Counted from the first letter of the stretch, positions 6,297-29,287 are shown. The stretch: DNA of 64,000 nucleotides from Deltaproteobacteria bacterium (GCA_026992735.1 JALWYO010000033.1:2091-66090), one strand, 5' to 3'. Program-made: numbers and translations. The notes: generated from the sequence alone by a model not told the origin.

Positions 6297-6570
6297 GCAA
6301 GATATCCAGTAATTTCTCAATAGGTGTGTGCAAATTCCCCTGTATCTGCTTACAGGAGGACTCAGATAAGCGCAGACTTCGTACGCAGATAAAAGACAAA
6401 GAAAATCTTGGCGCTTCTGTGTTTGTTTGTGTTCAAACTTGTAATTTGCAGACTTTTTGAGAAATTACAATATCCATGCTTAACTATGCGAATATTTAAG
6501 ATAAACAGAGAAAATCCACGGTTGTCAGACCTTTCTATATGCATTCGTAGCAGATTAACCACTTATTTAA

Positions 6571-6599
6571 TTGACAAACCATGCCTGAAAATTTAGTTA
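6571..6599 (+). promoter_or_regulatory. candidate sigma-70 promoter for the Hdr-like operon
   Basis: Perfect -35 TTGACA (6571-6576), a 17-nt spacer, then TAGTTA (6594-6599). This implies a leader of about 200 nt. The -10 match is weak. Confidence 0.3.
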
Positions 6600-6804
6600 T
6601 TACCTTGTTGAATACAGGGTTGAAAATACCGTATTTGACAGTAAGTTGCAGATTCTGATTTTGTCCCAAGGATGCAGGACTATGCAGCGTAGGCAAGGAT
6701 GCTGTGATGCCGTGTGCGCTGATACCTGAAATTAATCCGGGACCGCAGGCCCACCGTGGCCTGTATGCAGGTTTATCGTGAATAAATTATTGAGGATTGC
6801 GGGC

Positions 6805-8058
6805 ATGCAGGAAAACAATATAGACCTTGAAAAGATCAGGGCGGGTGTCAAGAAAAAGATAGAGCAGGCCGTTCCTGAAGCCAATATCAACTATTGTCTG
6901 ACATGCGGGCTATGCGCAAGCGGCTGTCCTGCTACAGGCCTGGATGATATGGATCCCAGGAAATTTCTCAGGATGTTGGTGCTTGGGCAGGACGAGGAGA
7001 TCCTGAATACCGACTGGATCTATGCCTGTACCATGTGCCAGAGATGCCGTTATGCCTGTCCCATGGGCATAGATGTAGGTAGAATAGTATATGAAATCAG
7101 GGGGATGCGGCCTCGAGAAAAGCGTCCAAAGAACCTGCAGCGCTCCTGCGACTTGCAGAGGCAGAATAACAGTACAGGTATTCCTAATGAGGATTTTGTC
7201 TGGGTAGTGGGAGACGTGCTGGAAGAGGTCAGGGAGAACGAGCCCGAGTGGAAGGACCTCCAGGCTCCTATAGATAAGAAGGGTGCAAAATATTACCTTA
7301 ACCAGAATGCCAAGGAACCGACAGTGGAGCCGGAGGAGATGGTCCCTCTCTGGAAGATACTACATGCTGCAGATATTGACTGGACCTATTCCTCCGAATG
7401 GTGGGACGGTGCCAACTATTGCCTGTTCACCGGCGATCCTGGAGACTGGGAATACACTGTGCGCAAACAGGCAGAGGTGGTGGATTCCCTTGGGTGCCGA
7501 TATTACATAAATACGGAGTGAGGCCACATGTTCTATGCGACCCTGGAAGGGTTGCGCCGCTTCAACATTCAGCACAAGTTTGAGTTTGTCAGTATTATCA
7601 GCCTCTATGCCCAGTGGATCAGGGAAGGCAGGCTCAAGGTGGATTCATCATGGAACAGGGAAGGCCTTAAGTTCACTGTTCAGGATCCCTGCAAGCTCGT
7701 GAGACAGGGTCTTGGCGATGTTGTGGCTGAAGACCTGCGTTTTGTGGTCAAAAAGGTAGCTGGTGAGGAAAATTTCGTTGACGTATGGCCCAGGCTGTCG
7801 AATAACTATTGCTGTGGCGGCGGTGGCGGCGCCCTGCAGGCCGGTTTCGTGGAAAACAGGCGGAAGTACGGCAAGTTGAAGTTTGATCAGCTGGCGGCAA
7901 CTGGAGCGGATGTGGTAATCACACCATGCCACAATTGTCATAGCCAGGTCCTGGATATATGTGATTTCTACGGAGGCAGGTGGAAGACCACTCACCTGTG
8001 GAACTGGCTTGCAAATGCGCTGGTCATGGATGATTCGGCGACAGGTAGGGAAGGATAG
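6805..8058 (+). CDS. HdrD/GlpC-like Fe-S oxidoreductase (two [4Fe-4S] motifs plus CCG domains), probably a selenoprotein read through UGA 7519-7521
   Basis: Track ORFs 6778..7521 and 7528..8058 are in the same frame and are separated only by TGA plus 6 nt. The N-terminal part has CLTCGLCASGCP and CTMCQRCRYACP. The C-terminal part has a complete CCG domain (C-x39-CCG-x36-CxxC). The start is set at ATG 6805 (GAGGA 8 nt upstream) rather than GTG 6778. Alternative reading: two separate genes, since GAGG lies 4 nt before ATG 7528. Confidence 0.6.
7537..7555 (+). other. candidate bacterial SECIS hairpin
   Basis: GCGACCC-UGGAA-GGGUUGC forms a 7-bp stem (one G-U pair) with a 5-nt G-containing loop. 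It starts 15 nt after the in-frame UGA. Confidence 0.45.
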
Positions 8059-8061
8059 GAT

Positions 8062-11000
8062 ATGAGTACCCCAAAAGGTTCTGTGCTTGTTGTAGGAGGT
8101 GGAATTGCTGGTGTCCAGGCAGCTCTGGACTTGGCGGACAGCGGGTTCTATGTTCACCTGGTAGAGAAAAGCGCGGCCATTGGAGGAAGCATGTCACAGT
8201 TGGATAAGACGTTTCCCACCAATGACTGTTCTGCCTGTATACTTTCGCCAAAGCTGGTTGAGTGCGGAAGGCATCTTAATATAAATCTTCTTACCCTTTC
8301 CGAAGTTTTGTCTGTAGATGGTGAAGAGGGCGATTTTCAAGTAAGAGTGCGGCAGAATCCCAGGTATGTTGATCCTGAAAAGTGTATTGCATGCGGTAGC
8401 TGCGCTGAAAAATGTCCCAAGAAGGTGCCCAACGAATTTGACATGGGCCTTGGCAAGAGAAAGGCCATATATCTCAGATATCCCCAGGCAGTTCCCTTGA
8501 AATATGCCATTGATCCCGATCACTGCATATATCTTAAAAAGCCGGGCAGGTGCGGCTTCTGTGAAAAGGTCTGCCCTGCGGACGCCATAAATTTCAAGGA
8601 TCAACCCAAAGAACATCTGCTCAATGTGGGTTCTGTCATACTTGCGCTTGGTTTCAAGCCCTTTGATCCATCCGGGCTGGATTTTACAGGCTATGGAAAC
8701 TTGAAGAACGTGGTTACCAGTATGGAGTTTGAGAGGCTTCTCAGCCCTTCAGGCCCATGCCAGGGCCACATGGAAAGGCCTTCGGATCACCAGGAGCCGA
8801 AGAAGATCGCCTGGCTCCAGTGTGTCGGGTCCAGGGATATCAACAGGGCCTGTCATGGCTATTGTTCGTCTGTATGCTGCATGTACGCCATAAAACAGGC
8901 GGTGATCGCAAGAGAGCATTCTTCCAGCGGTGCTGTTGATGCAACGGTCTTCTATATGGATATGCGGACTCATGGCAAGGGCTTTGAGGCCTATTATGAC
9001 AGGGCCAGGGAAGAGGGAATTAAATTTCACAGGGCCAGGGTCCATACGGTCTCACCTGCTGAAAATGACAACCTGAAGGTTCGTTATGCAGGAGAGAATG
9101 GGGACATAAGAGAGGATGAGTTCGATTTGGTAGTCCTTTCCGTAGGCCTTGCGACAGATCCGCAGGTCATCAAGCTTGCCAACGACCTGGGCATAGAGCT
9201 GGATTCAGACAGCTTTGCCAGGACAACATGCCTCAGGCCCGTAGAGACCAGCAGGAACGGCGTGTTCGTATGCGGGGCCTTGGCAGAGCCCAAGGATATC
9301 CCCCAGTCTGTCATGGAGGCCAGTGCTGCAGCCCTTGAAGCAGAGCGGATACTCTATCCTTCCAGGTGGACTGAAACAAAGGAAAAACATTTCCCCAAGG
9401 AAAGAGACGTACATGCAGAGCCGCCGCGTATAGGTGTCTTTGTATGTTCCTGCGGGATAAACATAGCCGGAGTGGTAGATGTCCAGGCAGTGACGGATTA
9501 TGCCTGGAAATTGCCAGGCGTGGTATTTGCCCAGAACAACCTGTTTACCTGTTCGCAGGATACCATCAATCAAATGGCAGAGACCATCAAGAGAGAACGG
9601 CTGAACAGGGTGGTCGTGGCTTCATGCACACCCAGGACCCATGAGCCACTGTTTCAGGAAACATTGCGCGAGGCCGGTATCAACAAGTACCTGTTTGAGA
9701 TGGCCAACATCAGGGATCAGGATTCATGGGTGCATCAGCGGCAGCCTGAGGCAGCCACTGAGAAGGCCAAGGACCTGGTGAGGATGGCTGTGGCAAAGGT
9801 AAGGGGAGATGATCCCCTACCGTACAATACCGTGCCTGTTATAAAATCCGCCATGGTCATTGGTTCTGGCGTGGCAGGCTTGACGGCAGCGCTTTCCCTG
9901 GCAGACCAGGGCTTTCCTGTGACTCTTGTGGAAAGGAAGGACAGGCTTGGCGGGCATGCGCACAAGTTTTTCAGGACATGGCAGGGGCAGGAGATGCAGC
10001 CCTATCTGAGTGAGCTGGTGTCCATGGTTGAGGCCAGTGATCTGATAGATGTGCATCTGGGCACCACGGTCCAGGATGTCTCAGGTTCAGTTGGCCAGTT
10101 TACCAGTATCTTGACGGATGGTACCGAGGTGAAACATGGTGTGGCCATCGTTGCCGTTGGCGCCGAATCGTTCAAGCCCAGAGAAGGCAGGTGGAATTAC
10201 CTCTATGGCAAGAATCCCAATGTTCATACGCTCCTGGAACTGGACCAGAGATTTATAAAGGATGATCCGGGCTTAAAGGGCCTTAACCAGGCGGTCTTTA
10301 TCCATTGTGTCGGCTCAAGGGTGCCTGAGCGTCCTTACTGCAGCAGGGTATGCTGCACCCATGCAATAGACCAGGCCCTGCACCTGAAAGAAATGAATCC
10401 GGACATGGATATCTTCATGCTCTACAGGGATATCCGCACCTATGGCAAGAGAGAGCATCTATATCAGGAGGCAAGGGCCAAGGGCATAATTTTCATCCGC
10501 TATGACCTGGAAAACCTTCCCAGAGTCTCGGAAGAGAACGGCAGCATGGTAGTCAAGGTCAGGGACCCGATAATCGATGCCAGCGTGACGCTTCATCCTG
10601 ACCTGCTGATATTGGCCTCTGCGGTGCGGCCCAGGGATGATGTCGGAGGCCTCTCCAAGCTGTTCAAGTGCGCCATGACCGGAGACGGTTTCCTGCTGGA
10701 GGCCCACATGAAGCTGCGCCCTGTGGATTTCGCCACGGACGGCGTTTACCTGGCAGGCCTGTGTCATTATCCAAAGCCGGTGGAGGAGACTATAGCCCAG
10801 GCAAAGGCCGCTGCTTCCAGGGCGGGCCTGGTCCTCTCCAGGGATGCGGTTCCGGCAGAAAGCATAACTGCGGTTGTGAACCTTCAAAAGTGTACCGGTT
10901 GTGCAGTATGTGCCAGGGTCTGTGCCTATCATGCGGTAAATATGGACGAGAACAGCGGCAAGGCACAGGTTGACACCGGGCTATGCAAGGGCTGTGGAGC

Positions 11001-11097
11001 ATGTGTGGCAGGTTGCCGTTCCGATGCAATAACATTAAAGAACCTTGGAAATGAACAGATAATGGCTGCAGTGGAAGCGGCCATGGAAGATTTTTAG
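8062..11097 (+). CDS. hdrA: HdrA-family FAD/Fe-S protein, tandem double-HdrA fusion
   Basis: 1011-aa ORF. It has two FAD Rossmann motifs (VVGGGIAGVQAA; VIGSGVAGLTAA), two CSxVCC motifs (GYCSSVCCMYAIKQA; PYCSRVCCTHAIDQA) and several ferredoxin CxxCxxCxxxCP motifs. It starts 3 nt after the preceding gene. Confidence 0.9.
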   Translation: MSTPKGSVLVVGGGIAGVQAALDLADSGFYVHLVEKSAAIGGSMSQLDKTFPTNDCSACILSPKLVECGRHLNINLLTLSEVLSVDGEEGDFQVRVRQNPRYVDPEKCIACGSCAEKCPKKVPNEFDMGLGKRKAIYLRYPQAVPLKYAIDPDHCIYLKKPGRCGFCEKVCPADAINFKDQPKEHLLNVGSVILALGFKPFDPSGLDFTGYGNLKNVVTSMEFERLLSPSGPCQGHMERPSDHQEPKKIAWLQCVGSRDINRACHGYCSSVCCMYAIKQAVIAREHSSSGAVDATVFYMDMRTHGKGFEAYYDRAREEGIKFHRARVHTVSPAENDNLKVRYAGENGDIREDEFDLVVLSVGLATDPQVIKLANDLGIELDSDSFARTTCLRPVETSRNGVFVCGALAEPKDIPQSVMEASAAALEAERILYPSRWTETKEKHFPKERDVHAEPPRIGVFVCSCGINIAGVVDVQAVTDYAWKLPGVVFAQNNLFTCSQDTINQMAETIKRERLNRVVVASCTPRTHEPLFQETLREAGINKYLFEMANIRDQDSWVHQRQPEAATEKAKDLVRMAVAKVRGDDPLPYNTVPVIKSAMVIGSGVAGLTAALSLADQGFPVTLVERKDRLGGHAHKFFRTWQGQEMQPYLSELVSMVEASDLIDVHLGTTVQDVSGSVGQFTSILTDGTEVKHGVAIVAVGAESFKPREGRWNYLYGKNPNVHTLLELDQRFIKDDPGLKGLNQAVFIHCVGSRVPERPYCSRVCCTHAIDQALHLKEMNPDMDIFMLYRDIRTYGKREHLYQEARAKGIIFIRYDLENLPRVSEENGSMVVKVRDPIIDASVTLHPDLLILASAVRPRDDVGGLSKLFKCAMTGDGFLLEAHMKLRPVDFATDGVYLAGLCHYPKPVEETIAQAKAAASRAGLVLSRDAVPAESITAVVNLQKCTGCAVCARVCAYHAVNMDENSGKAQVDTGLCKGCGACVAGCRSDAITLKNLGNEQIMAAVEAAMEDF

Positions 11098-11112
11098 GCA
11101 AAGGCGCAGACT

Positions 11113-11553
11113 ATGAATGATATATCAAAAAGCAAGGGGGCGTGGGAGCCCAAGATCATCGCCTTTCTCTGCAACTGGTGCAGCTATGCCGGTGCTGACC
11201 TGGCCGGGGTGAGCAGATATCAGTATCCCCCGTCTATCAGGATAGTCCGTGTTCCCTGTTCAGGCCGGGTAAGTCCTAACCTGATACTGGATGCGCTCCG
11301 TTCAGGTGCTGACGGCGTGCTGGTTTCAGGCTGTCATCCCGGGGACTGTCACTATATCAGCGGCAACTACTATGCCAGGAGGCGTTTTGCCCTGCTCAAG
11401 AGATTTCTGGAATTTGTAGGGGTGGAGCCTGACAGGGTGAACTTTACCTGGATTTCTGCATCAGAAGGTGAGCAGTTTGCGCAGGTTGCTACAGAGGTGA
11501 CAGAGCGTGTGAGAAAACTCGGCCCGGCAACACATCTGTTAAAGGAATTTTGA
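11113..11553 (+). CDS. mvhD: MvhD/FlpD-like [2Fe-2S] protein (methyl-viologen-reducing hydrogenase delta-subunit family)
   Basis: 146-aa ORF. The motifs KIIAFLCNWCSYAGADLAG ... RVPCSGRV ... VSGCHPGDCHY are characteristic of MvhD. Confidence 0.9.
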   Translation: MNDISKSKGAWEPKIIAFLCNWCSYAGADLAGVSRYQYPPSIRIVRVPCSGRVSPNLILDALRSGADGVLVSGCHPGDCHYISGNYYARRRFALLKRFLEFVGVEPDRVNFTWISASEGEQFAQVATEVTERVRKLGPATHLLKEF

Positions 11554-11555
11554 TC

Positions 11556-12599
11556 ATGTCCACTGTAAATGAAAAGATAACCTCTGAAATCAGGGAAAAG
11601 GTCCGCGAGCTGCTGGCATCAGGTCATGTGGCAGCCTTTTTGGGCTATACCTCCGGTTCAGTCCCTATGGTCATGCAGCCTCTGATCATCAGGACCCCGG
11701 AGGATGCTGACAGGCTTGAGTGGAACAGTTTTTGTGTTCTGAACCTTGCCAACTATCTGCCTGCACTACTCAAGAGTTTTGAGCCACCCAGGCGCCCGGG
11801 CGATCCTCCTCCAGAGGGTCCTCTTCCAAAGGTTGGGGTCCTGGCAACAGGCTGCTGGTCAAGAAACATGGTAATTCAGGTCCAGGAAAACCAGGTGGAC
11901 AGGGACCGTGTTGTGGTCGTGGGTATTTCCAGCAGGGGCATGGTTGACAGGAAAAAGGTGCTTGCAGCAGTAGGTCACAGGGATGTAACTGCTGTTTACG
12001 AGTATGATCATAGCCTTAAGGTTTCAGGGCCTGGTTATGAGCGGGAGATAAACCGCTGGGATGTTGTAAGAGATAACTGCCGGACCTGTGTCCATCCTGA
12101 TCCTGTTATATTTGATCACATGATAGGTGATCTCAAGGGTGAGAGGGATGTCGCTGACCGTTTCAGGCAGGTGGAAGATATCGAGGTCCTTGCTCCAGAG
12201 GATAGATGGAGCTGGTTCTCCACTGAAATTGCTTCCTGCATAAGGTGTTACGCATGCAGGAATGCATGTCCTCTCTGCTATTGCCCCACATGTTTTGTGG
12301 ATGATTCCAGGCCGCAATGGGTTGGCAAGAGTATAGACAAGGCGGACACAGCCATTTTCCATATACTGAGGGCTTACCACTGTGCAGGCCGCTGTACTGA
12401 TTGCGGCTCCTGTGAAAGCGCATGTCCCATGGGGATAAAGATGAGAATCCTGACCAGGAAACTCCAGAAGGATGTCCTTGAACTCTATGGCGCAGAGGCA
12501 GGTATGGATATGCAGAGTCCTCCACCTCTTAGTACTTACAAGATGGACGATCCACAGGATTTTATCCTGACAGAATCTATCAAGGGTGAAGAAAAGTGA
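11556..12599 (+). CDS. 4Fe-4S dicluster protein (Hdr-associated electron-transfer subunit)
   Basis: ORF track 11550..12599 begins at TTG; I prefer ATG 11556. Cluster motifs are CIRCYACRNACPLCYCPTCF and CTDCGSCESACPMG. The stop overlaps the next start (GTGA). Confidence 0.75.
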   Translation: MSTVNEKITSEIREKVRELLASGHVAAFLGYTSGSVPMVMQPLIIRTPEDADRLEWNSFCVLNLANYLPALLKSFEPPRRPGDPPPEGPLPKVGVLATGCWSRNMVIQVQENQVDRDRVVVVGISSRGMVDRKKVLAAVGHRDVTAVYEYDHSLKVSGPGYEREINRWDVVRDNCRTCVHPDPVIFDHMIGDLKGERDVADRFRQVEDIEVLAPEDRWSWFSTEIASCIRCYACRNACPLCYCPTCFVDDSRPQWVGKSIDKADTAIFHILRAYHCAGRCTDCGSCESACPMGIKMRILTRKLQKDVLELYGAEAGMDMQSPPPLSTYKMDDPQDFILTESIKGEEK

Positions 12600-13624
12600 A
12601 GGTTTTGATCCTCGACAAGGCAGGTTTTCAGGACTGGCTTAGGGCGCTTGCCGGTGAGTTTGATATAATTGGTCCGGCTGAAAATACAAAGGGCCTGCTG
12701 GATTGGAATAAGCTGGAGCCAGGTGAATTACCGGATTTCAGGCCCGGCCTGCCCAAAAGTTCCATAAAGACGTTTTTCTTTCCGCAGCCGGAGACACTTC
12801 TGGAATTTTCTGCGAGGCCAGGAGATGATCAGGCCTTCAGGCCGCATGAACCATCTGAAGGCAGAAGAGCAAGGCTTTTGGCAGGTGTCAGGCCCTGTGA
12901 TGCAAGGAGCGTGGCCCTGAACTCTATGCCTTATGCCAGTGATCCTTACTTTCTTAAAAACAGGGAGAACGTGGCCATGGTAGGCCTTGCATGCACTCAG
13001 GGCTGTTCCACCTGTTTTTGTACGTGGACAGGGGGATCTCCTGTGGGTTCAGATGGCATGGATGTAATGGCGTATCCATTGGGAGATGCCTTTGCTCTTG
13101 AGCCAGTTACCGGCAGGGGCAAAGACATGCTTCTTAAAGCCTCGTCTGCAAGGGAGGCTGCCCAGGAAGATCTGGCTGCCCTGGATGCATTAAAGGCCTC
13201 AGCTCCGTCTTCCCTGCCCGATGCCATGGACCCTGCATCGGTTCTCAGGGAAAAAGAATTGATGTCATTGTACAATGCATCTTTCTGGCAAGGGCTTTCC
13301 GAATCCTGCCTGAACTGTGGCACATGCACATTCCTCTGTCCCACCTGCTACTGCTTTGATATCCAGGACGAGACCCTGAAGGGAAAGGGCCGCAGGATCC
13401 GCTACTGGGATTCCTGCATGTTTCCTCTTTTTACCCTCCATGCATCAGGGCACAATCCCAGGGGTGAGAAGGTCAAGAGGGTCAGGAACCGGTTCATGCA
13501 CAAACTGAAATATTTTCCCGATCGTTTCGGTCCGCTCTCATGCGTTGGATGCGGGCGCTGTGTAAGGGACTGCCCGGTAAACATAGACATAAGACAGGTC
13601 ATGAAAGATCTTCTTGCAATCTGA
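12596..13624 (+). CDS. AsrA / sulfhydrogenase-beta-like 4Fe-4S protein
   Basis: 342-aa ORF with a GTG start. Motifs CLNCGTCTFLCPTCYCFD ... YWDSCMF ... CVGCGRCVRDCPVNIDI match the anaerobic sulfite reductase subunit A / HydB-type family. Confidence 0.8.
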   Translation: MKVLILDKAGFQDWLRALAGEFDIIGPAENTKGLLDWNKLEPGELPDFRPGLPKSSIKTFFFPQPETLLEFSARPGDDQAFRPHEPSEGRRARLLAGVRPCDARSVALNSMPYASDPYFLKNRENVAMVGLACTQGCSTCFCTWTGGSPVGSDGMDVMAYPLGDAFALEPVTGRGKDMLLKASSAREAAQEDLAALDALKASAPSSLPDAMDPASVLREKELMSLYNASFWQGLSESCLNCGTCTFLCPTCYCFDIQDETLKGKGRRIRYWDSCMFPLFTLHASGHNPRGEKVKRVRNRFMHKLKYFPDRFGPLSCVGCGRCVRDCPVNIDIRQVMKDLLAI

Positions 13625-13648
13625 ATACCCTGTTGAGAGAGAAAAGTA

Positions 13649-14482
13649 ATGAATCCCTATCTGCCTTATCCTGCAAGGATAGATGACATAATAGTAGAGA
13701 CCGAGGACGGCAACCTGAAGACATTCAGGCTGGTCCTGGAAGACAGTAATGACCGGGAGGCATGGACGCATGTGCCTGGCCAGTTTGCCATGCTGAGTAT
13801 TGCCGGCAAGGGTGAAATCCCCATCGGCATTGCATCCTCTCCTACTGAAAAGGGCCATATCCTGTTTACCGTTAACAGGGCAGGCGTGGTGACAACGGCC
13901 CTACACAAGATGAATGTTGGTGATCCTATTGGCGTGAGAGGCCCTCTTGGCAACGGATTTCCCGTGAACTCGGAACTGAAAGGCAAGAATATAGTTATAA
14001 TTGCAGGCGGTTTCGCATTCACAACACTCAGGGCCACGCTGATATACATGCTGGAGCACAGAGATGATTATGGCAGGATAACCGTTATTTACGGTGCCAG
14101 GACTCCTGGAATGCTCCTGTATAAAGATGAGCTCACTGCATGGCAGCAGAGAGATGATCTCGATGTCCATATCACCATAGACAGGGAAGCCCCTGGATGG
14201 ACAGGACTTGTAGGTTTTGTCCCAACAATTGCCGGGCAGGTAAAACCATCCCCTGAAAATGCAGCAGCCTTGATATGCGGCCCTCCTATAATGATAAAGT
14301 TTACAATGCCGCCGCTGGAAGAAGTTGGATGGACAGATGATCAGGTCTATCTTTCCCTTGAGAACCGGATGAAATGCGGCTTGGGCGTATGTGGCCACTG
14401 TAACGTGGGGCCTGTCTATGTCTGCAAGGACGGCCCGGTTTTTACCAGGGCACAGGTGCAGAAACTGCCTGTGGAATTCTGA
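13649..14482 (+). CDS. AsrB / PyrK-like FAD-NAD(P)H oxidoreductase with a C-terminal [2Fe-2S] site
   Basis: 277-aa ORF with a ferredoxin-reductase-type fold (FAD-binding and NAD-binding halves, IIAGGFAFTTL). The C-terminal motif CGLGVCGHCNVGPVYVCKDGPVF resembles the PyrK/AsrB cluster motif. Confidence 0.8.
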   Translation: MNPYLPYPARIDDIIVETEDGNLKTFRLVLEDSNDREAWTHVPGQFAMLSIAGKGEIPIGIASSPTEKGHILFTVNRAGVVTTALHKMNVGDPIGVRGPLGNGFPVNSELKGKNIVIIAGGFAFTTLRATLIYMLEHRDDYGRITVIYGARTPGMLLYKDELTAWQQRDDLDVHITIDREAPGWTGLVGFVPTIAGQVKPSPENAAALICGPPIMIKFTMPPLEEVGWTDDQVYLSLENRMKCGLGVCGHCNVGPVYVCKDGPVFTRAQVQKLPVEF

Positions 14483-14529
14483 TGTTCAGGTTACTTGACC
14501 TTAAGCCAACAGTGGGCTAAAAATCTGCC

Positions 14530-15654
14530 ATGACTTCCAAGAACAATAATTTCGGCCCACCGCCTCTTAAGATAGGCCACATAGAATCACGTTATCCCAT
14601 TATCCAAGGCGGCATGGGGGTGGGCATATCCATGGCGGGGCTTGCTTCTGCTGTTGCAAGGGCAGGTGGAATCGGCGTTATTGCCGGGGTTCTCATTGGC
14701 ATCACTGAAAAGGACTTTGCTTCTGATCCTCAGGGTGCAACCCACAGGGGGTTTGCGAAACAGATAGAGAAGGCTAAAGAACAGTCAGGCGGCGGTCCAA
14801 TCGGTGTTAACATAATGGTGGCCCTGCAGGATTATGATGAAATGGTGGAGATTGCTGCCAGGGCAGGGGCTGATCTCATTATCAGCGGCGCCGGGCTGCC
14901 TTTGAAGATGCCCGCCATGATACCTGATGGCTGTGATACCGCCCTGGTGCCCATAGTGTCTTCCGGCAGGGCAGCACAGCTCCTGTGTCGCAGGTGGAAA
15001 CAGCACTATGACCGTTTGCCGGATGCATTCGTGGTAGAAGGCCCCAAGGCTGGCGGACACCTTGGCTTTAAGGCAGAGGACCTGGAGAAGCCTGAATCCC
15101 AGGTGGAAAACCTGGTGCAGGAAGTGATAGATGCGGTAATACCCTATCGCGAGAAATACGGAGCTCCGATTCCGGTTATTGCAGCAGGCGGCATTTACAC
15201 AGGTAGCGATATATACCGTTTTCTAAAGATGGGAGCTGCCGGTGTACAGATGGGCACCAGGTTTGTGGCTACCAATGAATGTGATGCATCCGATGAGTTC
15301 AAGAACGCCTATCTCAGGGCCAAGAAAGACGACATTCTCATAATCAAGAGCCCGGTGGGCATGCCGGGACGTGCTCTCAAGGGTCCGTTCCTGGAGAAGA
15401 TGGCCCGCGGGGAAAAACATCCCAAGAAATGCGCCTACAAATGTATAAGGACCTGCCGTTATCCAGATACTCCTTACTGTATCAGCATGGCTCTGGTGAA
15501 TGCGCAGCGGGGCAATCTTAATGCCGGTTTCGTTTTCTGTGGTGAAAATGTCTGGAGGGTGGACAAGATAGTCCCGGTGGAAGGGCTTATACAGGAACTC
15601 GTGGAGGGCTACAGGGCGAGCGCAGCCAAGGATATGACAGCGGCAGACAGCTGA
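14530..15654 (+). CDS. nitronate monooxygenase / FabK-like FMN oxidoreductase family protein
   Basis: 374-aa ORF. PIIQGGMGVGIS and a TIM-barrel pattern typical of the NMO (2-nitropropane dioxygenase) family. It carries an extra Cys-rich C-terminal segment (KKCAYKCIRTCRYPDTPYC). Confidence 0.8.
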   Translation: MTSKNNNFGPPPLKIGHIESRYPIIQGGMGVGISMAGLASAVARAGGIGVIAGVLIGITEKDFASDPQGATHRGFAKQIEKAKEQSGGGPIGVNIMVALQDYDEMVEIAARAGADLIISGAGLPLKMPAMIPDGCDTALVPIVSSGRAAQLLCRRWKQHYDRLPDAFVVEGPKAGGHLGFKAEDLEKPESQVENLVQEVIDAVIPYREKYGAPIPVIAAGGIYTGSDIYRFLKMGAAGVQMGTRFVATNECDASDEFKNAYLRAKKDDILIIKSPVGMPGRALKGPFLEKMARGEKHPKKCAYKCIRTCRYPDTPYCISMALVNAQRGNLNAGFVFCGENVWRVDKIVPVEGLIQELVEGYRASAAKDMTAADS

Positions 15655-17023: not shown

Positions 17024-17057
17024 AGAAAAAACAGAAAAGGCTGGACAAGCCAGCCTT
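17024..17057 (-). terminator. rho-independent terminator after tRNA-Ala
   Basis: On the minus strand: AAGGCTGG-cttgt-CCAGCCTT followed by TTCTGTTTTTT. Confidence 0.6.
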
Positions 17058-17068
17058 TGTTTGCCTTC

Positions 17069-17144
17069 TGGTGGAGCTGAGCGGGATCGAACCGCTGACC
17101 TCGTGAATGCCATTCACGCGCTCTCCCAACTGAGCTACAGCCCC
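17069..17144 (-). tRNA. tRNA-Ala (anticodon GGC)
   Basis: The reverse complement folds as a 76-nt cloverleaf: GGGGCTGTAGCTCAGTTGGGAGAGCGCGTGAATGGCATTCACGAGGTCAGCGGTTCGATCCCGCTCAGCTCCACCA. It has the G3:U70 Ala identity pair, an anticodon loop AUGGCAU (GGC), a GGTTCGATCC T-arm and an encoded CCA. Confidence 0.95.
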
Positions 17145-17507: not shown

Positions 17508-18953
17508 ATGCATCCCATATTCAAGGATCTTCAGGAATTCATAAAGGCTTTGGAAGCCGCAGGTGAACTTGTCAGGATAGCCGAACCAGTGAGCCCTGAG
17601 TTGGAGATAGCGGAGATAACCTGCCGAGTTTCCCATAGTCATGGCCCGGCATTGCTGTTTGAAAACGTATCCGGCGGATCAATGCCTGTGCTGACCAATG
17701 CATTTGGATCCCTGAAACGCATGTGCATGGCCTTCGGCATTTCTGACCTGGACAGTCTCGCCTCTGATGTCCTGGATTTCATTGATCTGGAAGATCCTGC
17801 TGGATACTGCAGCAGGCATGCCATTGATATGTATGCAGGCAAGATAAATCCTGTAAGACCAATACCGGTATCATCTGCGCCTTGCCAGGAGAGGGTCTTT
17901 GTTGGAGATGAAGTGGATCTCGCCATGCTGCCGGTTCTCAAGTGCTGGCCTAGTGATGGCGGCCCGTCTCTCACCATGCCCGTGGTGTTGACAAGGGATC
18001 CTGAAACAGGTGTGAGAAATGCCGGGGTTTACAGGATGCAGGTATATGGCAGAAACAGGACAGGCATGCACTGGTATGCTTCCAGGGGAGGCGCCCGTCA
18101 TTACCGTTCTGCTGAACGGCTGAATGAGCCTCTGGAGGCAGCAGTATGTATCGGCCCCGATCCTGTTACGACTTATGCGGCTACCGCCCCTCTGCCAGAC
18201 GGCATTGATGAGCTGCTTTTTGCCGGTTTCATCAGGCATGATTCAGTAGAACTGGTAAAGTGCAGGACAGTGGACATGGAAGTGCCTGCGCAGTCCCAGA
18301 TAGTCCTGGAAGGCTTTTTAGCGCCTGGTGAACGCCTGCCGGAAGGTCCGTTTGGAAACCACACAGGCTGTTATTCCCCCGTGGAGGAATATCCGGTATT
18401 TCATGTTACCTGCATGACCATGAAAAAATCACCTGTTTATCAGGCCACTGTTGCAGGGCCTCCTCCACAGGAGGACTGCTTTATGGCAAAGGCCACAGAA
18501 CGCCTGTTTCTTCCTTTGATAAAGAGGACTGTGCCTGGAGTAGTGGATGTAAACCTGCCAATAGAAGGTATATTCGGCAACCTTGCATTTGTCTCCATAG
18601 ACAAGCGTTTCCCAGGTCACGCCCGGAAGGTAATGAATGCCCTGTGGGGCCATTTCCTGGGAACGTGGAGGATAATCTGCGTGTTTGACAGGGATGTGGA
18701 TGTGCAGGATATGACTCAGGTATTGTGGCGTCTTGGAAATAATATAGATCCCAAGCGGGATGTATGCTTTACTGACGGCCCTGTGGACATCCTGGCATGG
18801 TCGGCCCCCTTTCCTGGCTACGGCAGCAGGATGGGTATAGACTGCACTGTGACATGGGATGAGGAAGGAGGCAGGCCGTGTCCCGGGACCATGGAGATGG
18901 ATCCTGCTGTCAGCCAGAGAGTGGACCTGCTCTGGTCCAGGCTTGGACTTTGA
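17508..18953 (+). CDS. UbiD-family (prenyl-FMN-dependent) decarboxylase, menaquinone/ubiquinone-type
   Basis: 481-aa ORF with UbiD-family similarity along its whole length (GVYRMQVYG, PFGNHTGCYS). A UbiX-type gene follows immediately. Confidence 0.9.
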   Translation: MHPIFKDLQEFIKALEAAGELVRIAEPVSPELEIAEITCRVSHSHGPALLFENVSGGSMPVLTNAFGSLKRMCMAFGISDLDSLASDVLDFIDLEDPAGYCSRHAIDMYAGKINPVRPIPVSSAPCQERVFVGDEVDLAMLPVLKCWPSDGGPSLTMPVVLTRDPETGVRNAGVYRMQVYGRNRTGMHWYASRGGARHYRSAERLNEPLEAAVCIGPDPVTTYAATAPLPDGIDELLFAGFIRHDSVELVKCRTVDMEVPAQSQIVLEGFLAPGERLPEGPFGNHTGCYSPVEEYPVFHVTCMTMKKSPVYQATVAGPPPQEDCFMAKATERLFLPLIKRTVPGVVDVNLPIEGIFGNLAFVSIDKRFPGHARKVMNALWGHFLGTWRIICVFDRDVDVQDMTQVLWRLGNNIDPKRDVCFTDGPVDILAWSAPFPGYGSRMGIDCTVTWDEEGGRPCPGTMEMDPAVSQRVDLLWSRLGL

Positions 18954-18960
18954 TTTGACA

Positions 18961-19554
18961 ATGGGCAGTATGAACAGCATGCAGATCGACTTGCCGGTTC
19001 TTCTGGCCGTGACAGGAGCCAGCGGTTCTATCTATGCGCTGAAATTTTTGGAGATAATGGCCGGGATAGGGCAGGAAGTACACCTGGTGGTATCAGAAAC
19101 CGGCAGGCAGGTATGCAGGCTGGAACTCGGGCCAAAAGGCATGGAAGCCATGGCAGGGTTTGCAGGCCGGGTTTACAATTGTTCCAGGTTTGACGAGATG
19201 CCTGCCAGCGGCTCCAGCAGGTGGAGGGCCATGGTTATCCTACCATGCACCATGGGCACCATGGGGGCAATTGTCAACGGCATATCAATGAATCTCATAC
19301 ACCGTGCCGCTGACTGTTTTCTCAAGGAAAACAGGCAAGTGGTTGCGGCAGTCAGGGAGACCCCGCTAAACAGGATACATCTGAAGAATATGCTGGCATT
19401 CTCAGAGGCCGGGGGGGTGGTTTATCCCGCCATGCCTTCATTCTATTCTCATCCGGCAGGTCTTGATGAGATGGCGGCATTTTTCGCAGGCCGTCTGGCT
19501 GAATTTCTGGGATTTAGAATAGAGGGGTTGCCTGTATGGCAAGGCAATCCTTAA
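18961..19554 (+). CDS. ubiX: UbiX-family flavin prenyltransferase
   Basis: The track ORF starts at 18859 inside ubiD. I trimmed it to ATG 18961, just after the ubiD stop. The sequence LLAVTGASGSIYALKFLE ... PCTMGTMGAIVNGIS is typical of UbiX/Pad1. Confidence 0.9.
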   Translation: MGSMNSMQIDLPVLLAVTGASGSIYALKFLEIMAGIGQEVHLVVSETGRQVCRLELGPKGMEAMAGFAGRVYNCSRFDEMPASGSSRWRAMVILPCTMGTMGAIVNGISMNLIHRAADCFLKENRQVVAAVRETPLNRIHLKNMLAFSEAGGVVYPAMPSFYSHPAGLDEMAAFFAGRLAEFLGFRIEGLPVWQGNP

Positions 19555-19659
19555 TTTTAGAATAGGGAATCGGTTTATGTTTATACGCATCTCTACAAGC
19601 CCGGTCAAACCCGGCTGTCGCAATTTAATATTATGCGGGAATTCCGCAGGGAGGATGCA

Positions 19660-20394
19660 ATGAGTCCAGATATAGAAAAGGCCTTGGCTTACCAGGTAAA
19701 AAAGGAGATAGCACAGCGCTATTTTGGCATTCGCAAGCTCATAGATGAGGACAGCGCCAACGTTAAGGCCATGATAAAGGATCTGAACCAGTTTCTGGAG
19801 AAGAAGATAGCGCCAGCTATTCTCCGCATATATATGTTGCTCATGGACAGTGATCTCATAGACGAGTTTCTTAATATCATTGGCTGGGAAGGCCGGCCCT
19901 TCATTGATGCCAATGTTGCGGCATCGGCAGATGCCCGCAAGAAATTGCTGCAGGGAATACATACTCACGGCTGGCTCAAGAGCTCCAGGTTTGCAAATCT
20001 GCTCCTGAAAAGTTATGAAGATCTATATGATGTGTACCTGGAATTTGATGATCTCAGGGAAGATATTCTGGATGAGCTTGCAATAGTGGAAGAAGAGATA
20101 ACCCAGTTCAAGAGAAATTATTCCCTGGATGAGATAATGTCTTTCCTTCGTGGTCTGAATTTTGATGACGAGGCCACTGTCAAGGCCCTGGGTAAAAACA
20201 TAGACTCTTCCAAGATGGGAGAGCTGGAAAAGAAGCTCGGTTTTCCGGATATCCAGAGTATCAGGGCGGAAATGCCGGATGTTCCAAAGCTTCCGAAGCC
20301 TGAGGCAATAGAGGATCAGCTTCGGGACCTGGCCAGCCGGGTATATAACCGCCACAAAGACGAGATACAGGAGCTGCTGGAAGTGGTTAGGTAA
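19660..20394 (+). CDS. hypothetical protein (acidic, helical), embedded in the UbiD/UbiX/UbiA cluster
   Basis: Track ORF 19633..20394. I prefer ATG 19660, which has GGGAGGA 5 nt upstream. I recognise no family motif. Confidence 0.6.
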   Translation: MSPDIEKALAYQVKKEIAQRYFGIRKLIDEDSANVKAMIKDLNQFLEKKIAPAILRIYMLLMDSDLIDEFLNIIGWEGRPFIDANVAASADARKKLLQGIHTHGWLKSSRFANLLLKSYEDLYDVYLEFDDLREDILDELAIVEEEITQFKRNYSLDEIMSFLRGLNFDDEATVKALGKNIDSSKMGELEKKLGFPDIQSIRAEMPDVPKLPKPEAIEDQLRDLASRVYNRHKDEIQELLEVVR

Positions 20395-20481
20395 CATAGA
20401 CATAGAAGTGTTGTGCCGTTATGTCATCTGGTATGCTGTATGACAGGATGTGGATATTAGAAACAGGCGGAATATAAGATA

Positions 20482-21360
20482 ATGACGACAGGCAGTAAGA
20501 CGATTTCCGGCAGAGTCCGGATATTTCTGGACATGATAAAGTTCCAGCACACCATTTTTGCGCTTCCCTTTGCCTATGTGGGTGCCTTTCTCGCAGCTAA
20601 GGGGGTTCCTCCCATTGGAACATGTGTCTGGATACTGCTTGCCATGGCCGGTGCCAGGACAGTAGCCATGGCAGTCAACAGGATAGTGGACAGGGAGTAT
20701 GATGCTGAAAACCCCCGCACCATGGACCGCCCTCTGGTTACAGGGGCCATAATGGAGCCGGATGCATGGATCATGGTGACTATGGCTGCCCTTGTATATT
20801 TCATTGCCTGTTACAACCTTACTACCTTGGCATTCAGGCTTTCCCCCCTTATATTGGCTATTCTTGTCTTCTATTCTTATACAAAACGTTTCACCTTCCT
20901 GTGTCACCTGTTCCTGGGGCTTGGCATAGGCATTACTCCCACTGCTGGCTGGATAGCGGTCAGTAATTCCATAGGCATTACTCCTCTGCTTCTAAGCCTG
21001 GGCGTAATGTTCTGGATTGCCGGGTTCGATATACTGTATGCATGCCAGGATGTAGAATTTGATGCGGACCGCGGCCTTCATTCTATCCCTGTAAAGCTGG
21101 GGGTAAAGCGGGCATTCGTCGTCTCCGGGGCATTCCATGTGATAGCATTCGGCGCCTTTATGGCAGCCGGCATTACGGCAGGCTTGAACTGGATATATTA
21201 CCTTGGCATGGTGGCTGTCTTTGTGCTTCTCTGCCTCCAGCGTATGGTAATTACCCCCTCTGACCTGAGCAGGATGAACCTGGCTTTTTTCAGAATGAAT
21301 GCGGCAATCAGTATAATCCTGCTGGTTTCCACCTCGTTTTCCATCTTTATGGCCAGGTAA
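20482..21360 (+). CDS. UbiA-family aromatic polyprenyltransferase (4-hydroxybenzoate / menaquinone-precursor type)
   Basis: 292-aa polytopic membrane protein with UbiA Asp-rich motifs (NRIVDREYDAENPRT; YACQDVEFDADRGLHS). Confidence 0.9.
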   Translation: MTTGSKTISGRVRIFLDMIKFQHTIFALPFAYVGAFLAAKGVPPIGTCVWILLAMAGARTVAMAVNRIVDREYDAENPRTMDRPLVTGAIMEPDAWIMVTMAALVYFIACYNLTTLAFRLSPLILAILVFYSYTKRFTFLCHLFLGLGIGITPTAGWIAVSNSIGITPLLLSLGVMFWIAGFDILYACQDVEFDADRGLHSIPVKLGVKRAFVVSGAFHVIAFGAFMAAGITAGLNWIYYLGMVAVFVLLCLQRMVITPSDLSRMNLAFFRMNAAISIILLVSTSFSIFMAR

Positions 21361-22163
21361 TGGCAGTCAGGCATGACATGAATGCCCGGATTTTGCTCCA
21401 GGAGGAGGTTGGGCCGGACACGTTTCTCATGAGATTTGAGGCAACCGTCATCTCGGAATATGCCCGTCCAGGCCAGTTCATAATGATAAGGCTGTGCGGT
21501 TATGAGGGCCATGATCCTCTGCTGAGAAGGCCTTTTTCCATCCATGCAGCAGACCCTGATAAGGGAACCGTTGATATCCTGTACCGTGTCGTGGGTAGGG
21601 GGACAAGGCAGATGTCCGGCCTTGCGCCAGGCATGGCCCTGAAGGTACTCGGCCCTCTTGGCCGAGGATTCAGCCTGCATGAAGAAAGGACCCCTGTACT
21701 GGTAGGTGGAGGTCTTGGCGTTGCGCCCCTCCTCTTCCTTGCCAGGCATCTTAAGGGTCAGGGAGGTTCTGTCATACTTGGTGCAGTGACATCCCGCCAG
21801 CTTCTGAGGCTGGATGCATTTGAGAATACCGGCCTTGATCTGCTCGTTGCAACCGAAGATGGCAGCGCAGGAGTCAGGGGGCTGGTAACAGGTGTGCTGG
21901 ATAATCTATTGAAGGATATCGGCAGTCATCACGCCCGGCCTGCAGCAGTGTATTCATGCGGGCCCATGCCCATGCTCAAGGCGGTGGCCGGGGTATGTAT
22001 GGAATATGCCATCGAATGCCAGGTATCTATAGAAGCGGTAATGGCATGTGGCCTGGGGCTGTGTCTCGGATGTGCAGTAAAGGCAAGGCATGATGGCTAT
22101 GTGCATGTGTGCAGGGAAGGCCCTGTGTTTTATTCAGACCAGATAGACTGGGAGCAGCTGTAA
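21360..22163 (+). CDS. pyrK: dihydroorotate dehydrogenase (type 1B) electron-transfer subunit
   Basis: 267-aa ORF with a ferredoxin-reductase fold and a C-terminal [2Fe-2S] motif CGLGLCLGCAV...VCREGPVF. Its ATG overlaps the ubiA stop (TAATG). Confidence 0.9.
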   Translation: MAVRHDMNARILLQEEVGPDTFLMRFEATVISEYARPGQFIMIRLCGYEGHDPLLRRPFSIHAADPDKGTVDILYRVVGRGTRQMSGLAPGMALKVLGPLGRGFSLHEERTPVLVGGGLGVAPLLFLARHLKGQGGSVILGAVTSRQLLRLDAFENTGLDLLVATEDGSAGVRGLVTGVLDNLLKDIGSHHARPAAVYSCGPMPMLKAVAGVCMEYAIECQVSIEAVMACGLGLCLGCAVKARHDGYVHVCREGPVFYSDQIDWEQL

Positions 22164-22170
22164 ACGCATC

Positions 22171-23112
22171 ATGAAATCAGAAAAGGAGATAAAGCAGGCC
22201 TGTTCTTCACCTGACATCAGTGTCAAGATAGGCGATTTAGAGCTTAAAAATCCGGTTATGCTGGCTTCAGGAACCTGCGGTTACGGCTTGGAATTCGCAG
22301 ATTTTGTGGACCCGTCTAGTTTGGGGGCCGTGGTGGTCAAAGGGCTTTCGCTGGAGCCAAGGGAGGGGAATCCTCCCCCGCGCCTGGCAGAGACTCCATG
22401 TGGCCTCCTGAATGCAATAGGGCTGGAGAATATAGGTCTTGATGCCTTTCTCAAACAGAAGTTGCCTTGGCTCATGGAGAGAAATGTGACCGTTGTGGTG
22501 AATATACTGGGCAGCACCCTTGAAGAATATCAGCGTATTGCAGCAAGGCTGTCAGAGTCCTCCGGGGTGCATGCCATAGAGGTAAACATTTCCTGTCCAA
22601 ATGTAAAAAAAGGAGGCGTGGCCTTTGGGACAGATCTCGTGCAGGCAGCAAATGTTACCAGGAAGGTAGTTGAGGTTTCATCAATTCCCGTAATAGTTAA
22701 ACTGTCTCCCAACGTGACCGACATCTGCGCCATTGCCAAGGCGGTGGAAGATGCCGGAGCCACTGCGGTATCCCTTATAAATACGCTCCTGGGCATGGTC
22801 ATTGACATCCATAACAGAAGGCCTGCGCTCGGAAATGTATTTGGAGGGCTTTCCGGCCCTGCCATTAAGCCGATAGCGCTTAGGATGGTATGGCAGGTGG
22901 CACGCTGTGTTGGTATCCCGGTCATAGGAATCGGCGGGATTGCAACTGCCGAAGATGCCCTGGAATTTCTTATGGCCGGGGCTTTGGCGGTGCAGATAGG
23001 CACTGCCACTCTTGTGGATCCTCTTGCATCTAAGAATGTGTTAAATGGAATAGTTGACTTTCTTACGAAAAATAACTACCGTAATCTTGTAGAGTTGAGG
23101 ATAAGCTCTTAA
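22171..23112 (+). CDS. pyrD: dihydroorotate dehydrogenase (type 1B) catalytic subunit
   Basis: 313-aa ORF with LKNPVMLASGTCGYG, NISCPNVKKGG and GIGGIATAEDALEFLMAGA. Confidence 0.9.
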   Translation: MKSEKEIKQACSSPDISVKIGDLELKNPVMLASGTCGYGLEFADFVDPSSLGAVVVKGLSLEPREGNPPPRLAETPCGLLNAIGLENIGLDAFLKQKLPWLMERNVTVVVNILGSTLEEYQRIAARLSESSGVHAIEVNISCPNVKKGGVAFGTDLVQAANVTRKVVEVSSIPVIVKLSPNVTDICAIAKAVEDAGATAVSLINTLLGMVIDIHNRRPALGNVFGGLSGPAIKPIALRMVWQVARCVGIPVIGIGGIATAEDALEFLMAGALAVQIGTATLVDPLASKNVLNGIVDFLTKNNYRNLVELRISS

Positions 23113-27756: not shown

Positions 27757-28122
27757 ATGATGAGCGGTTTTGAAACCATCGTCATGTATCTTGGAATGTC
27801 ATTGCTGGTTGTGCTGGCAATGCTGGGAGCATCGGCGTTACTTGGTCCTTTTCGGCCGCGGCCACAAAAGGCGACCACTTTTGAATGCGGTGTTCCGCTT
27901 CTGGAACCCGGTCATAAACGCTACTCAGTCAGATACTATCTGGTGGCTGTTCTTTTTCTTGTTTTCGATTTGGAAACAGTTCTTCTTTATCCCCTTGCGG
28001 TCAAATACAAGGCGTTGGCCCAACTTGGCTGGGGAGTATTTTTTGAGGTCTTTATCTTTGTTTTTGTTTTGTTGGTCGGTCTGGTTTATGCCATAAAGAA
28101 AGGCGCTATAGATTGGCGATAG
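27757..28122 (+). CDS. nuoA: NADH-quinone oxidoreductase subunit A
   Basis: 121-aa ORF with three TM helices, a FECG motif and GAGGAGG upstream. Confidence 0.9.
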   Translation: MMSGFETIVMYLGMSLLVVLAMLGASALLGPFRPRPQKATTFECGVPLLEPGHKRYSVRYYLVAVLFLVFDLETVLLYPLAVKYKALAQLGWGVFFEVFIFVFVLLVGLVYAIKKGAIDWR

Positions 28123-28135
28123 TGGGGACTGGAGT

Positions 28136-28651
28136 ATGAATTTTCAGGCAATTCAAGGTGAGGGCTGGCTGCTTACAAAGGCCGAACAGTTGATAAATTG
28201 GGGCAGAAGCAGGTCTCCTTGGCCATTTCCTTATGGTACGGCATGCTGTGGTATTGAGCTTATGTGTGCCCTTGCTTCCGGCTACGATATGGCCCGGTTC
28301 GGTGCAGAGCGCGTGGCATTTACGCCGCGCCAGTGTGATGTGCTGATCGAGGCTGGCACAATAACTAAAAAGATGGTCCCTGTGCTGAAGAGGATCTATG
28401 CGCAGATGGCTGAGCCCAAATGGGTGATAGCTGTAGGTGCCTGTGCCTGTACCGGCGGAGTTTTCAGGACTTATTCAACACAGCAGGGTATAGGTTCTAT
28501 AATCCCTGTGGACATCTACATTCCTGGCTGTCCGCCAAGGCCTGAGGGCATTTTGTATGCACTGCTCAAGCTGATAGACAAGATTGAAGCAGATCATCCT
28601 CTTTATAAAAACCGTCAAAAGGTAATAGAAGCATTGGAGGCTAACAAATGA
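28136..28651 (+). CDS. nuoB: NADH-quinone oxidoreductase subunit B
   Basis: 171-aa ORF. The N2-cluster ligand motifs CCGIE, GACACTGG and IPGCPPRPE are present. Confidence 0.95.
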   Translation: MNFQAIQGEGWLLTKAEQLINWGRSRSPWPFPYGTACCGIELMCALASGYDMARFGAERVAFTPRQCDVLIEAGTITKKMVPVLKRIYAQMAEPKWVIAVGACACTGGVFRTYSTQQGIGSIIPVDIYIPGCPPRPEGILYALLKLIDKIEADHPLYKNRQKVIEALEANK

Positions 28652-29199: not shown

Positions 29200-29287
29200 A
29201 AGACTCGATCAGGCCTTGGGAAAAGACTGCTTGTGCAGACTTTTTTGCCCGATGCAAGTGGTTCTGCGAGTTTAGGGGAGGATAAGA

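Follow-up and report, generated by a model that had tools for sequence, protein, structure and literature searches.

Flx-Hdr-type complexes are considered a main route by which sulfate reducers, syntrophs and sulfur disproportionators connect NAD(P)H and ferredoxin with DsrC, a protein of sulfite reduction; to our knowledge, none of these complexes has been purified with a defined activity, and none has a solved structure. The Flx (Flox) module was first found beside hdrABC in Desulfovibrio and, according to papers that cite the original descriptions, was proposed to oxidize NADH and to pass the electrons, by bifurcation via HdrABC, to ferredoxin and DsrC; an interaction of Flx-Hdr with DsrC in D. 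vulgaris is reported in the titles of cited references. The present work deals with a related locus in a 64,000-nucleotide (nt) stretch of DNA from a Deltaproteobacteria bacterium (GCA_026992735.1, JALWYO010000033.1:2091-66090), hereafter the window, in whose numbering all positions are given. The locus comprises seven consecutive genes (g1 to g7), the first six of which appear to form one unit, hdrD(Sec)-hdrA-flxD-flxC-flxB-flxA, where Sec denotes selenocysteine. An earlier note, made from the sequence alone, had taken all seven genes as one redox operon and had left open whether this combination was already characterized.

Compared with the cytoplasmic FlxABCD-HdrABC of D. vulgaris Hildenborough, as described in citing papers, the window likewise encodes an NAD(P)H-binding subunit with FAD and [2Fe-2S], a pair of Fe-S proteins and, adjoining HdrA, a protein of MvhD type. 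It differs in that HdrBC is replaced by one HdrD-type fusion with a predicted Sec and one intact CCG site, HdrA is a fused pseudo-dimer of 1011 amino acids (aa), the gene order is hdrD-hdrA-flxDCBA and no adh gene adjoins the cluster. The replacement of HdrBC by HdrD is itself known from Syntrophobacter fumaroxidans, where the Hdr/Flox cluster Sfum_1969-1977 has HdrD beside FloxABCD and HdrA; it was described from genome and proteome data only, and its HdrD was undetected (PMC5947623). In that cluster hdrD follows flxA, a second hdrA is present, and protein sequence identity to the window is only 33-48%. The order hdrA-flxDCBA-hdrD also occurs in the Syntrophobacterales loci L053, L070, L075, L076, L079 and L080, whose HdrD homologues share an in-frame TGA with g1.

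The core of the locus resembles BamDEF, a module of Geobacter metallireducens class II benzoyl-CoA reductase described in a 2026 preprint on cryo-electron microscopy, in the order HdrD-like subunit, fused HdrA and MvhD adaptor, in the seven [4Fe-4S] clusters and in a degenerate distal HdrD-like cluster. Unlike BamDEF, the window cluster has neither the BamBC tungsten module (no AOR-type genes) nor the BamGHI input (no NuoEFG/HydABC-type genes), and carries Flx instead; and the 146-aa g3 has no Sec, unlike BamF, which contains Sec19 and exceeds g3 by more than 100 aa, the predicted Sec of the window being in the HdrD-like subunit. Archaeal type II HdrA, with two thioredoxin-reductase-like (TrxR) domains, is encoded beside MvhD, FdhB, a Molybdop protein and sometimes HdrD; these clusters were catalogued in 2025, with no biochemistry (PMC12054007). 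By domain content the window is similar to them, since its HdrA has two TrxR domains and stands beside MvhD and an FdhB-family protein, but it is bacterial, takes NAD(P)H (FlxAB) rather than F420H2 as input and has no molybdopterin-family subunit. Finally, the methanogen Fdh-Hdr(-Fmd) and Mvh-Hdr complexes (7bkb, 8rvu, 5odc) have homologous HdrA, MvhD and FdhB-type subunits and served as template for the electron path, although the window has no hydrogenase or Fdh catalytic subunit, has HdrD(Sec) in place of HdrBC and would act on a substrate other than CoM-S-S-CoB.

Literature searches retrieved no structure of Flx-Hdr, literature and PDB searches no biochemical or structural work on the HdrD variant, and literature searches no explicit description of Sec, of an asymmetric fused HdrA in an Flx context or of the FdhB nature of FlxC. 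As far as searched, then, the Flx-Hdr kind and its HdrD variant are already in the literature, and to that extent the combination is not new, while the Sec, the fused asymmetric HdrA and the FdhB-like FlxC are apparently undescribed.

The conserved unit and its Flx module

The seven genes are tightly packed on the plus strand, with intergenic gaps of 3, 15, 2, -4, 24 and 47 nt, as the earlier note had reported, and the domain assignments it gave for g1 to g7 were confirmed by Pfam and NCBIfam searches of the products. The genes are as follows.

6805-8058, plus strand: g1, predicted HdrD-type (HdrC-HdrB fusion) selenoprotein, with Sec239 at TGA 7522-7524
8062-11097, plus strand: g2, predicted fused HdrA pseudo-dimer, 1011 aa
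11113-11553, plus strand: g3, MvhD/FlxD [2Fe-2S] adaptor, 146 aa (Pfam FlpD, 8.5e-58)
11556-12599, plus strand: g4, Fe-S protein at the FlxC position, with a predicted FdhB/FrhB-like fold and C-terminal 2x[4Fe-4S]
12596-13624, plus strand: g5, FlxB-type Fe-S protein, HydB/AsrA-like (Fer4_22, 1.1e-35)
13649-14482, plus strand: g6, FlxA-type FAD, NAD(P)H and [2Fe-2S] subunit, HydG/AsrB/PyrK-like
14530-15654, plus strand: g7, NMO family protein, 374 aa (NMO match, 4.4e-59)

Within g1 to g6 the gaps do not exceed 24 nt; g3 starts 15 nt past the end of g2, and g4 has an alternative TTG start at 11550. Of the parts recognized in the earlier note, the core of HdrA and MvhD, the module for NAD(P)H input and the one HdrD-type module are all present; in agreement with its reading, inspection of the large open reading frames (ORFs) of the window yielded no hydrogenase, HdrBC or Fdh. 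No gene for an HdrE-type membrane cytochrome b adjoins g1, and no transmembrane segments are evident in the g1-g6 proteins.

Conservation of the locus was assessed by scanning species-representative genomes with a g4 profile, followed by tblastn of the 80 loci kept with all window proteins; synteny was counted in the 35 loci that were sufficiently flanked at both ends. Relatives of g4 (FlxC) are encoded in at least 576 species-level genomes, 5,343 proteins matching at E <= 1e-5. The six genes g1-g2-g3-g4-g5-g6 occur in the window order in 18 of the 35 loci, which come from Desulfobulbaceae, Desulfocapsaceae, Desulfurivibrio, Dissulfuribacterales and Thermodesulfatator-like metagenome-assembled genomes (MAGs), and the g2-g6 core in 30/35. 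A g1 homologue follows g6 in four loci of Syntrophobacterales type, matching the published Sfum_1969-1974 order; Desulfacinum hydrothermale DSM 13146 (L079) also has hdrD last, but with too little flank to be counted. The remaining arrangements consist of g2-g6 only (8/35) or are without g2 (5/35). In the eight core loci without a g1 homologue neither HdrBC nor HdrD was detected by relaxed tblastn or, for L066, L071 and L072, by ORF inspection.

Because the six-gene order recurs in 18/35 flanked loci of other genomes, the g1-g6 arrangement is far from chance, and the conserved unit, judged from gene order, appears to be hdrD(Sec)-hdrA-flxD-flxC-flxB-flxA, probably transcribed as one operon. 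The gene-neighborhood search proposed in the earlier note thus recovers six of its seven genes, the seven-gene order being confined to the nearest relatives of the window, which are MAGs labelled Thermodesulfatator, Thermodesulfobacteriota or Deltaproteobacteria. In five Desulfobulbaceae-type loci (L015, L017, L018, L019 and L024) a pair of TauE/SafE (sulfite-exporter family) genes lies on the minus strand downstream of the g6 homologue, convergent to the cluster.

The last four genes of the unit, g3-g6, are an FlxDCBA module, set beside D. vulgaris Flx by domains, fold and gene order. The g3 product, of canonical size and without an in-frame stop, matches MvhD (5odc_D) at 1.1e-52. The g5 product matches ShyB/HydB/AsrA in NCBIfam and, over residues 11-333, the beta subunit of Pyrococcus furiosus sulfhydrogenase I (9nez_B, 1.1e-32), and g6 carries the Pfam domains NAD_binding_1, FAD_binding_6 and DHODB_Fe-S_bind and matches the gamma subunit of the same enzyme at full length (9nez_C, 3.6e-60). 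The two Fe-S proteins g4 and g5 sit between g6 and g3 as FlxC and FlxB do between flxA and flxD. For g4, annotated just as a 4Fe-4S ferredoxin, a profile of 20 homologues matches FdhB of the Methanospirillum Fdh-Hdr-Fmd complex (7bkb_E) in its N- and C-terminal parts with an E-value of 1.4e-28, and an AlphaFold2 model (predicted local distance difference test score, 85) has as its top Foldseek matches 7bkb_E and 8rvu_E (TMq, the TM-score normalized by query length, of 0.67 and 0.65), with FrhB-family proteins next. From this profile and model, g4 would be an FdhB-family adaptor. In our own reading of the 7bkb and 8rvu Hdr supercomplexes, MvhD serves as adaptor between the FdhB-type subunit and HdrA.

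The HdrD-type and fused HdrA subunits

In Pfam, g1 is composed of Fer4_17 and a single CCG domain (residues 291-382). Its top NCBIfam matches are HmcF, TmcB and DsrK, every one below cutoff, and HdrC (7bkb_C) matches it at 1.9e-11. In 30 homologues, the two cubane motifs (CxxCxxCxxxCP; C31/34/37/41 and C75/78/81/85) are invariant, and so is the complete CCG motif, which is present at the C-terminus only (C296, C336-C337, C375 and C378). The CCG-like domain at the N-terminus has degenerated, C206, C231 and U239 alone being left. Where two motifs of the form C-x31-39-CC-x35-36-CxxC denote two non-cubane clusters, g1 therefore has one.

The reading frame of g1 runs on through TGA 7522-7524, at which public gene calls split it in two. 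Codon 239 is TGA in 28 of the 30 homologues and TGC in the other two, and a hairpin follows it:

7540-7558, plus strand: selenocysteine insertion sequence (SECIS)-like hairpin, 7-bp stem GCGACCC / GGGTTGC, loop UGGAA, 15 nt past the UGA

Over the 28 TGA loci the stem is paired in 90.3% of cells, against 27-49% when the 3' partners are shifted as a control. Compensatory changes are found at three pairs, for instance ACC to GTC (Thr to Val) matched by the synonymous changes GGG to GGA and TTG to CTG, and the covariation score was reached by none of 500 shuffles; the hairpin is absent from both Cys-form (TGC) loci. On account of the Sec/Cys alternation and of a covarying hairpin that is missing in the Cys forms, g1 is assigned, from comparative sequence evidence, as a bacterial selenoprotein gene with TGA as its Sec codon, which bears out the probable Sec of the earlier note. 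A selenoprotein family named 'Fe-S oxidoreductase' is known, and g1 may be related to it.

Given that the second non-cubane site is missing and that the last-Cys position of the lost motif is invariably Sec or Cys (30/30 homologues), we propose that Sec239 could stand in for the second sulfur-binding site and form a transient selenenyl-sulfide with the substrate. The analogy is with ferredoxin:thioredoxin reductase, which uses cluster-plus-disulfide chemistry. The conserved Sec/Cys is likely to be the catalytic residue of a disulfide-reducing subunit.

The g2 protein can be divided into a first TrxR-like FAD domain with an inserted ferredoxin domain (residues 7-372), an HdrA N-terminal domain (447-601), a second TrxR/FAD domain (about 595-933), which matches the ferredoxin-less sHdrA 6tjr, and the end of this TrxR domain together with a C-terminal ferredoxin domain (869-1009). 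The HdrA chains 8rvu_a and 5odc_A match it in three stretches with E about 1e-188. Alignment of the halves with each other gives 28% identity between the flavin domains. Bifurcating flavins are recognized by two residues, Glu356 and Lys409 in Methanothermococcus HdrA (PMC12054007). Their counterparts in the N-terminal half, E224 and K278, are invariant in 36/36 g2 homologues, and the C-terminal half has D728 and a variable position 770, mostly Asp (D/E/Q/K/other among the 36). The 'double HdrA' of the earlier note thus does have two HdrA halves, but they are not equivalent, and g2 is best described, from these residues, as an asymmetric pseudo-dimer in which the N-terminal FAD site alone would keep the bifurcating-flavin signature.

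The same asymmetry is described for BamE, in which an HdrA dimer is fused, the clusters are E1-E7, and the FAD at Lys280 bifurcates whereas that at Gln768 does not; BamE also has a Cys59-Cys62 pair (preprint 10.64898/2026.04.10.717634). Compared by published residue numbers, g2 likewise has the Lys in the first TrxR domain (K278) and none in the second (D770). In g2 homologues 28 Cys are invariant, which suffices for seven [4Fe-4S] clusters; among them are the 8 Cys of the inserted ferredoxin domain. A C56-x2-C59 pair close to the first FAD is also conserved. The codon for C59 (about 8236-8238), which specifies Cys in the window, is an in-frame TGA in 10 of the 36 homologues (L034, L035, L066, L069-L073, L075 and L076), where it presumably encodes Sec.

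Proposed electron path, acceptor and direction

We interpret g1-g6 as one operon encoding a soluble Flx-Hdr-type flavin-based electron-bifurcating complex whose acceptor would most probably be DsrC, and give this reading a probability of roughly 60%. It is favored because gene content and order are conserved and because every subunit has homologues among electron-transfer partners of defined structure. The electron path, drawn by homology with solved complexes, would begin with the oxidation of NAD(P)H at the FAD of FlxA (g6), from which single electrons would pass through the FlxA [2Fe-2S] cluster to FlxB (g5), the FdhB-like FlxC (g4) and the [2Fe-2S] cluster of the MvhD-like g3. From g3 they would go on to the fused HdrA (g2) and there to the FAD in its N-terminal TrxR domain, the sole FAD site with the Glu/Lys pair, where the electron pair would be split. 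Ferredoxin would receive the low-potential electron by way of the inserted ferredoxin domain. The high-potential electron would take the TrxR-domain cluster and then both cubanes of g1 to arrive at the one non-cubane CCG cluster left intact, and this cluster and Sec239 together would reduce a disulfide or trisulfide, for which DsrC is the most probable carrier. The second HdrA half may serve mainly as a built-in partner protomer, and the complex may also operate in reverse, by confurcation. The soluble NAD(P)H-linked bifurcating or confurcating complex of the earlier note, with DsrC-type disulfides among its candidate acceptors, agrees with the published Flx-Hdr hypothesis; its activity is a prediction. 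The variant is attractive for experiments by virtue of its asymmetric HdrA pseudo-dimer, its strictly conserved Sec/Cys and the availability of a structure for class II benzoyl-CoA reductase (PDB 29QY) as a template for the core.

On circumstantial grounds DsrC is the favored acceptor: g1 is HmcF/TmcB/DsrK-like, all loci are from Dsr-bearing Desulfobacterota lineages, and dsrC is found downstream of flxA in three of them. In these three loci (L039, 3822-4136; L062, about 10890-11207; L066, 13148-13465), a bona fide dsrC (PF04358, 7e-36), whose product has both C-terminal Cys and the ending PTGCV, is separated by 179-229 nt from the flxA homologue upstream on its strand, and it is followed by siroheme-decarboxylase-like (AhbAB-type) genes.

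Several points weigh against this assignment. The gene for DsrC adjoins in just 3/54 loci, all three without an hdrD homologue in the cluster; the HdrD-like BamD hands electrons to ETF and not to a disulfide (10.64898/2026.04.10.717634); the degenerate N-terminal CCG domain of g1, as read from its motifs, would exclude the canonical two-cluster heterodisulfide chemistry; and the activity, complex formation and bifurcation of this variant are predictions, plausible ones, from sequence.

The comparison with BamD suggests that the same complex could instead have a non-disulfide high-potential acceptor, with g1 as a BamD-like exit wire to ETF, to another redox protein or to another substrate. BamD too is HdrD-like with a disrupted distal cluster, its acceptor being ETF (10.64898/2026.04.10.717634), and the distal (N-terminal) CCG domain of g1 is degenerate as well; g1-g2-g3 are colinear with bamD-bamE-bamF, and in published numbering K278 and D770 of g2 are within two residues of Lys280 and Gln768 of BamE. 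We consider this unlikely, since Sec or Cys at position 239 in every g1 homologue argues for thiol/selenol chemistry, g1 scores highest against HmcF, TmcB and DsrK, neither the cluster nor the window contains an ETF gene, and dsrC adjoins three of the loci.

Physiologically, the complex might run the other way and merge electrons from reduced ferredoxin and from thiols or DsrC into NAD(P)H, as when Desulfobulbia and Dissulfuribacterales disproportionate or oxidize sulfur. Sulfur disproportionators are among the members of the lineages to which many of the loci belong (Desulfocapsaceae, Dissulfuribacterales, Desulfurivibrio and Thermodesulfobacteria-like MAGs), flavin-based electron-bifurcating enzymes are reversible in principle, and confurcation was proposed for the S. 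fumaroxidans Hdr/Flox (PMC5947623). Direction is not readable from sequence, however, and the sole genetic evidence, obtained with D. vulgaris on ethanol and taken from citing papers, concerns NADH oxidation; a confurcating physiology is an improbable account of this locus.

Bifurcation itself could be dispensed with if the HdrA flavins were relays only and the complex a non-bifurcating NAD(P)H:disulfide (or polysulfide) oxidoreductase. In sulfhydrogenase, an NADPH-linked sulfur reductase activity resides in the beta and gamma subunits, to which FlxB and FlxA are homologous, and non-bifurcating HdrA-like proteins exist, such as sHdrA 6tjr. Against such a relay stand the retention of E224 and K278 in all homologues and the invariant 8-Cys inserted ferredoxin domain, for which there would be little reason if a low-potential branch were lacking; this alternative appears very unlikely.

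Returning to the bifurcating complex with DsrC as acceptor, a more far-reaching proposal is that HdrD(Sec)-fused-HdrA-FlxDCBA constitutes a distinct enzyme class, in which a BamDEF-like core is fed by NAD(P)H. Its single non-cubane cluster plus Sec would work in the manner of ferredoxin:thioredoxin reductase, reducing or oxidizing a DsrC trisulfide or disulfide or a persulfide carrier. In Desulfobulbia, Dissulfuribacterales and further sulfur-disproportionating lineages without a complex I NADH module, such a class might be what connects NAD(P)H, ferredoxin and DsrC in the cytoplasm, a link so far missing. This extension is tentative, and we hold it to be doubtful in its full form.

Promoter-like elements, g7 and the surrounding window

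For g1 the start is ATG 6805, in accord with the public gene call. The start at 6571 given in the earlier note was rejected as a coding start, the frame from that position having stops at 6586 and beyond. Position 6571 probably coincides with a promoter, being the first T of the TTGACA in the following element:

6569-6602, plus strand: promoter-like element before g1, TTGACA 6571-6576, 17-nt spacer, TAGTTA 6594-6599

In an alignment of 8 related loci this element is invariant and the other intergenic columns have diverged, with 42% mean column identity. A generic sigma-70 scan did not report it because its -10 hexamer is atypical; the number of sites found by the generic sigma-70/terminator scan was not above that in shuffled sequence. 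Between the element and the g1 ATG there are about 200 nt of untranslated leader (6603-6804), which differs among relatives in length and sequence and is far shorter in L006 and L008.

A second promoter-like element precedes g7. It has the invariant form CTTGAC-N17-TAAAA[A/G] and ends 6 nt before the ATG in the 7 loci in which g7 follows g6, all of them from the nearest relatives of the window. Since the motif ends so close to the ATG and no Shine-Dalgarno sequence is visible before g7, the g7 mRNA may be leaderless. In Dissulfurimicrobium hydrothermale the motif, a g7 orthologue and a convergent ilvE occur downstream of pnp and a peptidase gene, with flx and hdr genes missing from the vicinity; g7 is paired with a convergent ilvE in the window as well. 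Homologues of g7 are widespread in many other contexts, and in 24 of them, from diverse anaerobes, C301-x3-C305-x3-C309 is invariant and C317 nearly so, which suggests a metal or Fe-S site.

A seven-subunit complex including this NMO/FabK-like FMN protein, as the earlier note had it, could point to the location of g7 on the same strand, 47 nt past g6, in the close-kin loci and to its conserved Cys cluster. Against it, g7 does not follow g6 in the other 47 loci with sufficient downstream flank, has its own conserved promoter-like motif, occurs with that motif and ilvE away from flx/hdr in D. hydrothermale and has homologues that are common elsewhere, and we regard membership of g7 as hardly credible. 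Because its adjacency to g6 is limited to near relatives, it has a promoter-like element of its own and its context elsewhere is free of flx and hdr, g7 is, by comparative genomics, most simply a separately promoted neighbor outside the six-gene unit. For annotation, it follows from these assignments that the HdrD gene is split by gene callers at what would be a Sec codon, that the 'ferredoxin' g4 is probably an FdhB-family adaptor and that the NMO gene would lie outside the system.

Among the other features of the window, a paralogue of g6, PyrK, is encoded in a block at 17508-23112 that consists of ubiD-ubiX-(253 aa, unassigned)-ubiA followed by pyrK-pyrD (dihydroorotate dehydrogenase B). 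A complex I operon occupies 27757-38311, with NuoD, H, I, L, M and N identified by Pfam and A, B, C, J and K by size and position only; as nuoD (29288-30433) is directly followed by nuoH (30448-31488), the NADH-oxidizing NuoEFG module is absent from it. The interval 17036-17144 comprises a tRNA-Ala(GGC) gene on the minus strand and, directly downstream of it, a terminator-like hairpin (17036-17058), and a search of the whole window against Rfam at gathering thresholds gave this one tRNA only, with no SECIS family and no riboswitch. A nitrogen-assimilation block on the minus strand (41094-48154) contains glnA, glnD and two tandem ammonium transporter genes. The segment 60001-63901, of low GC content (0.44) and with a DUF6880 gene and a Fic/DOC gene on the minus strand, may be mobile or accessory.

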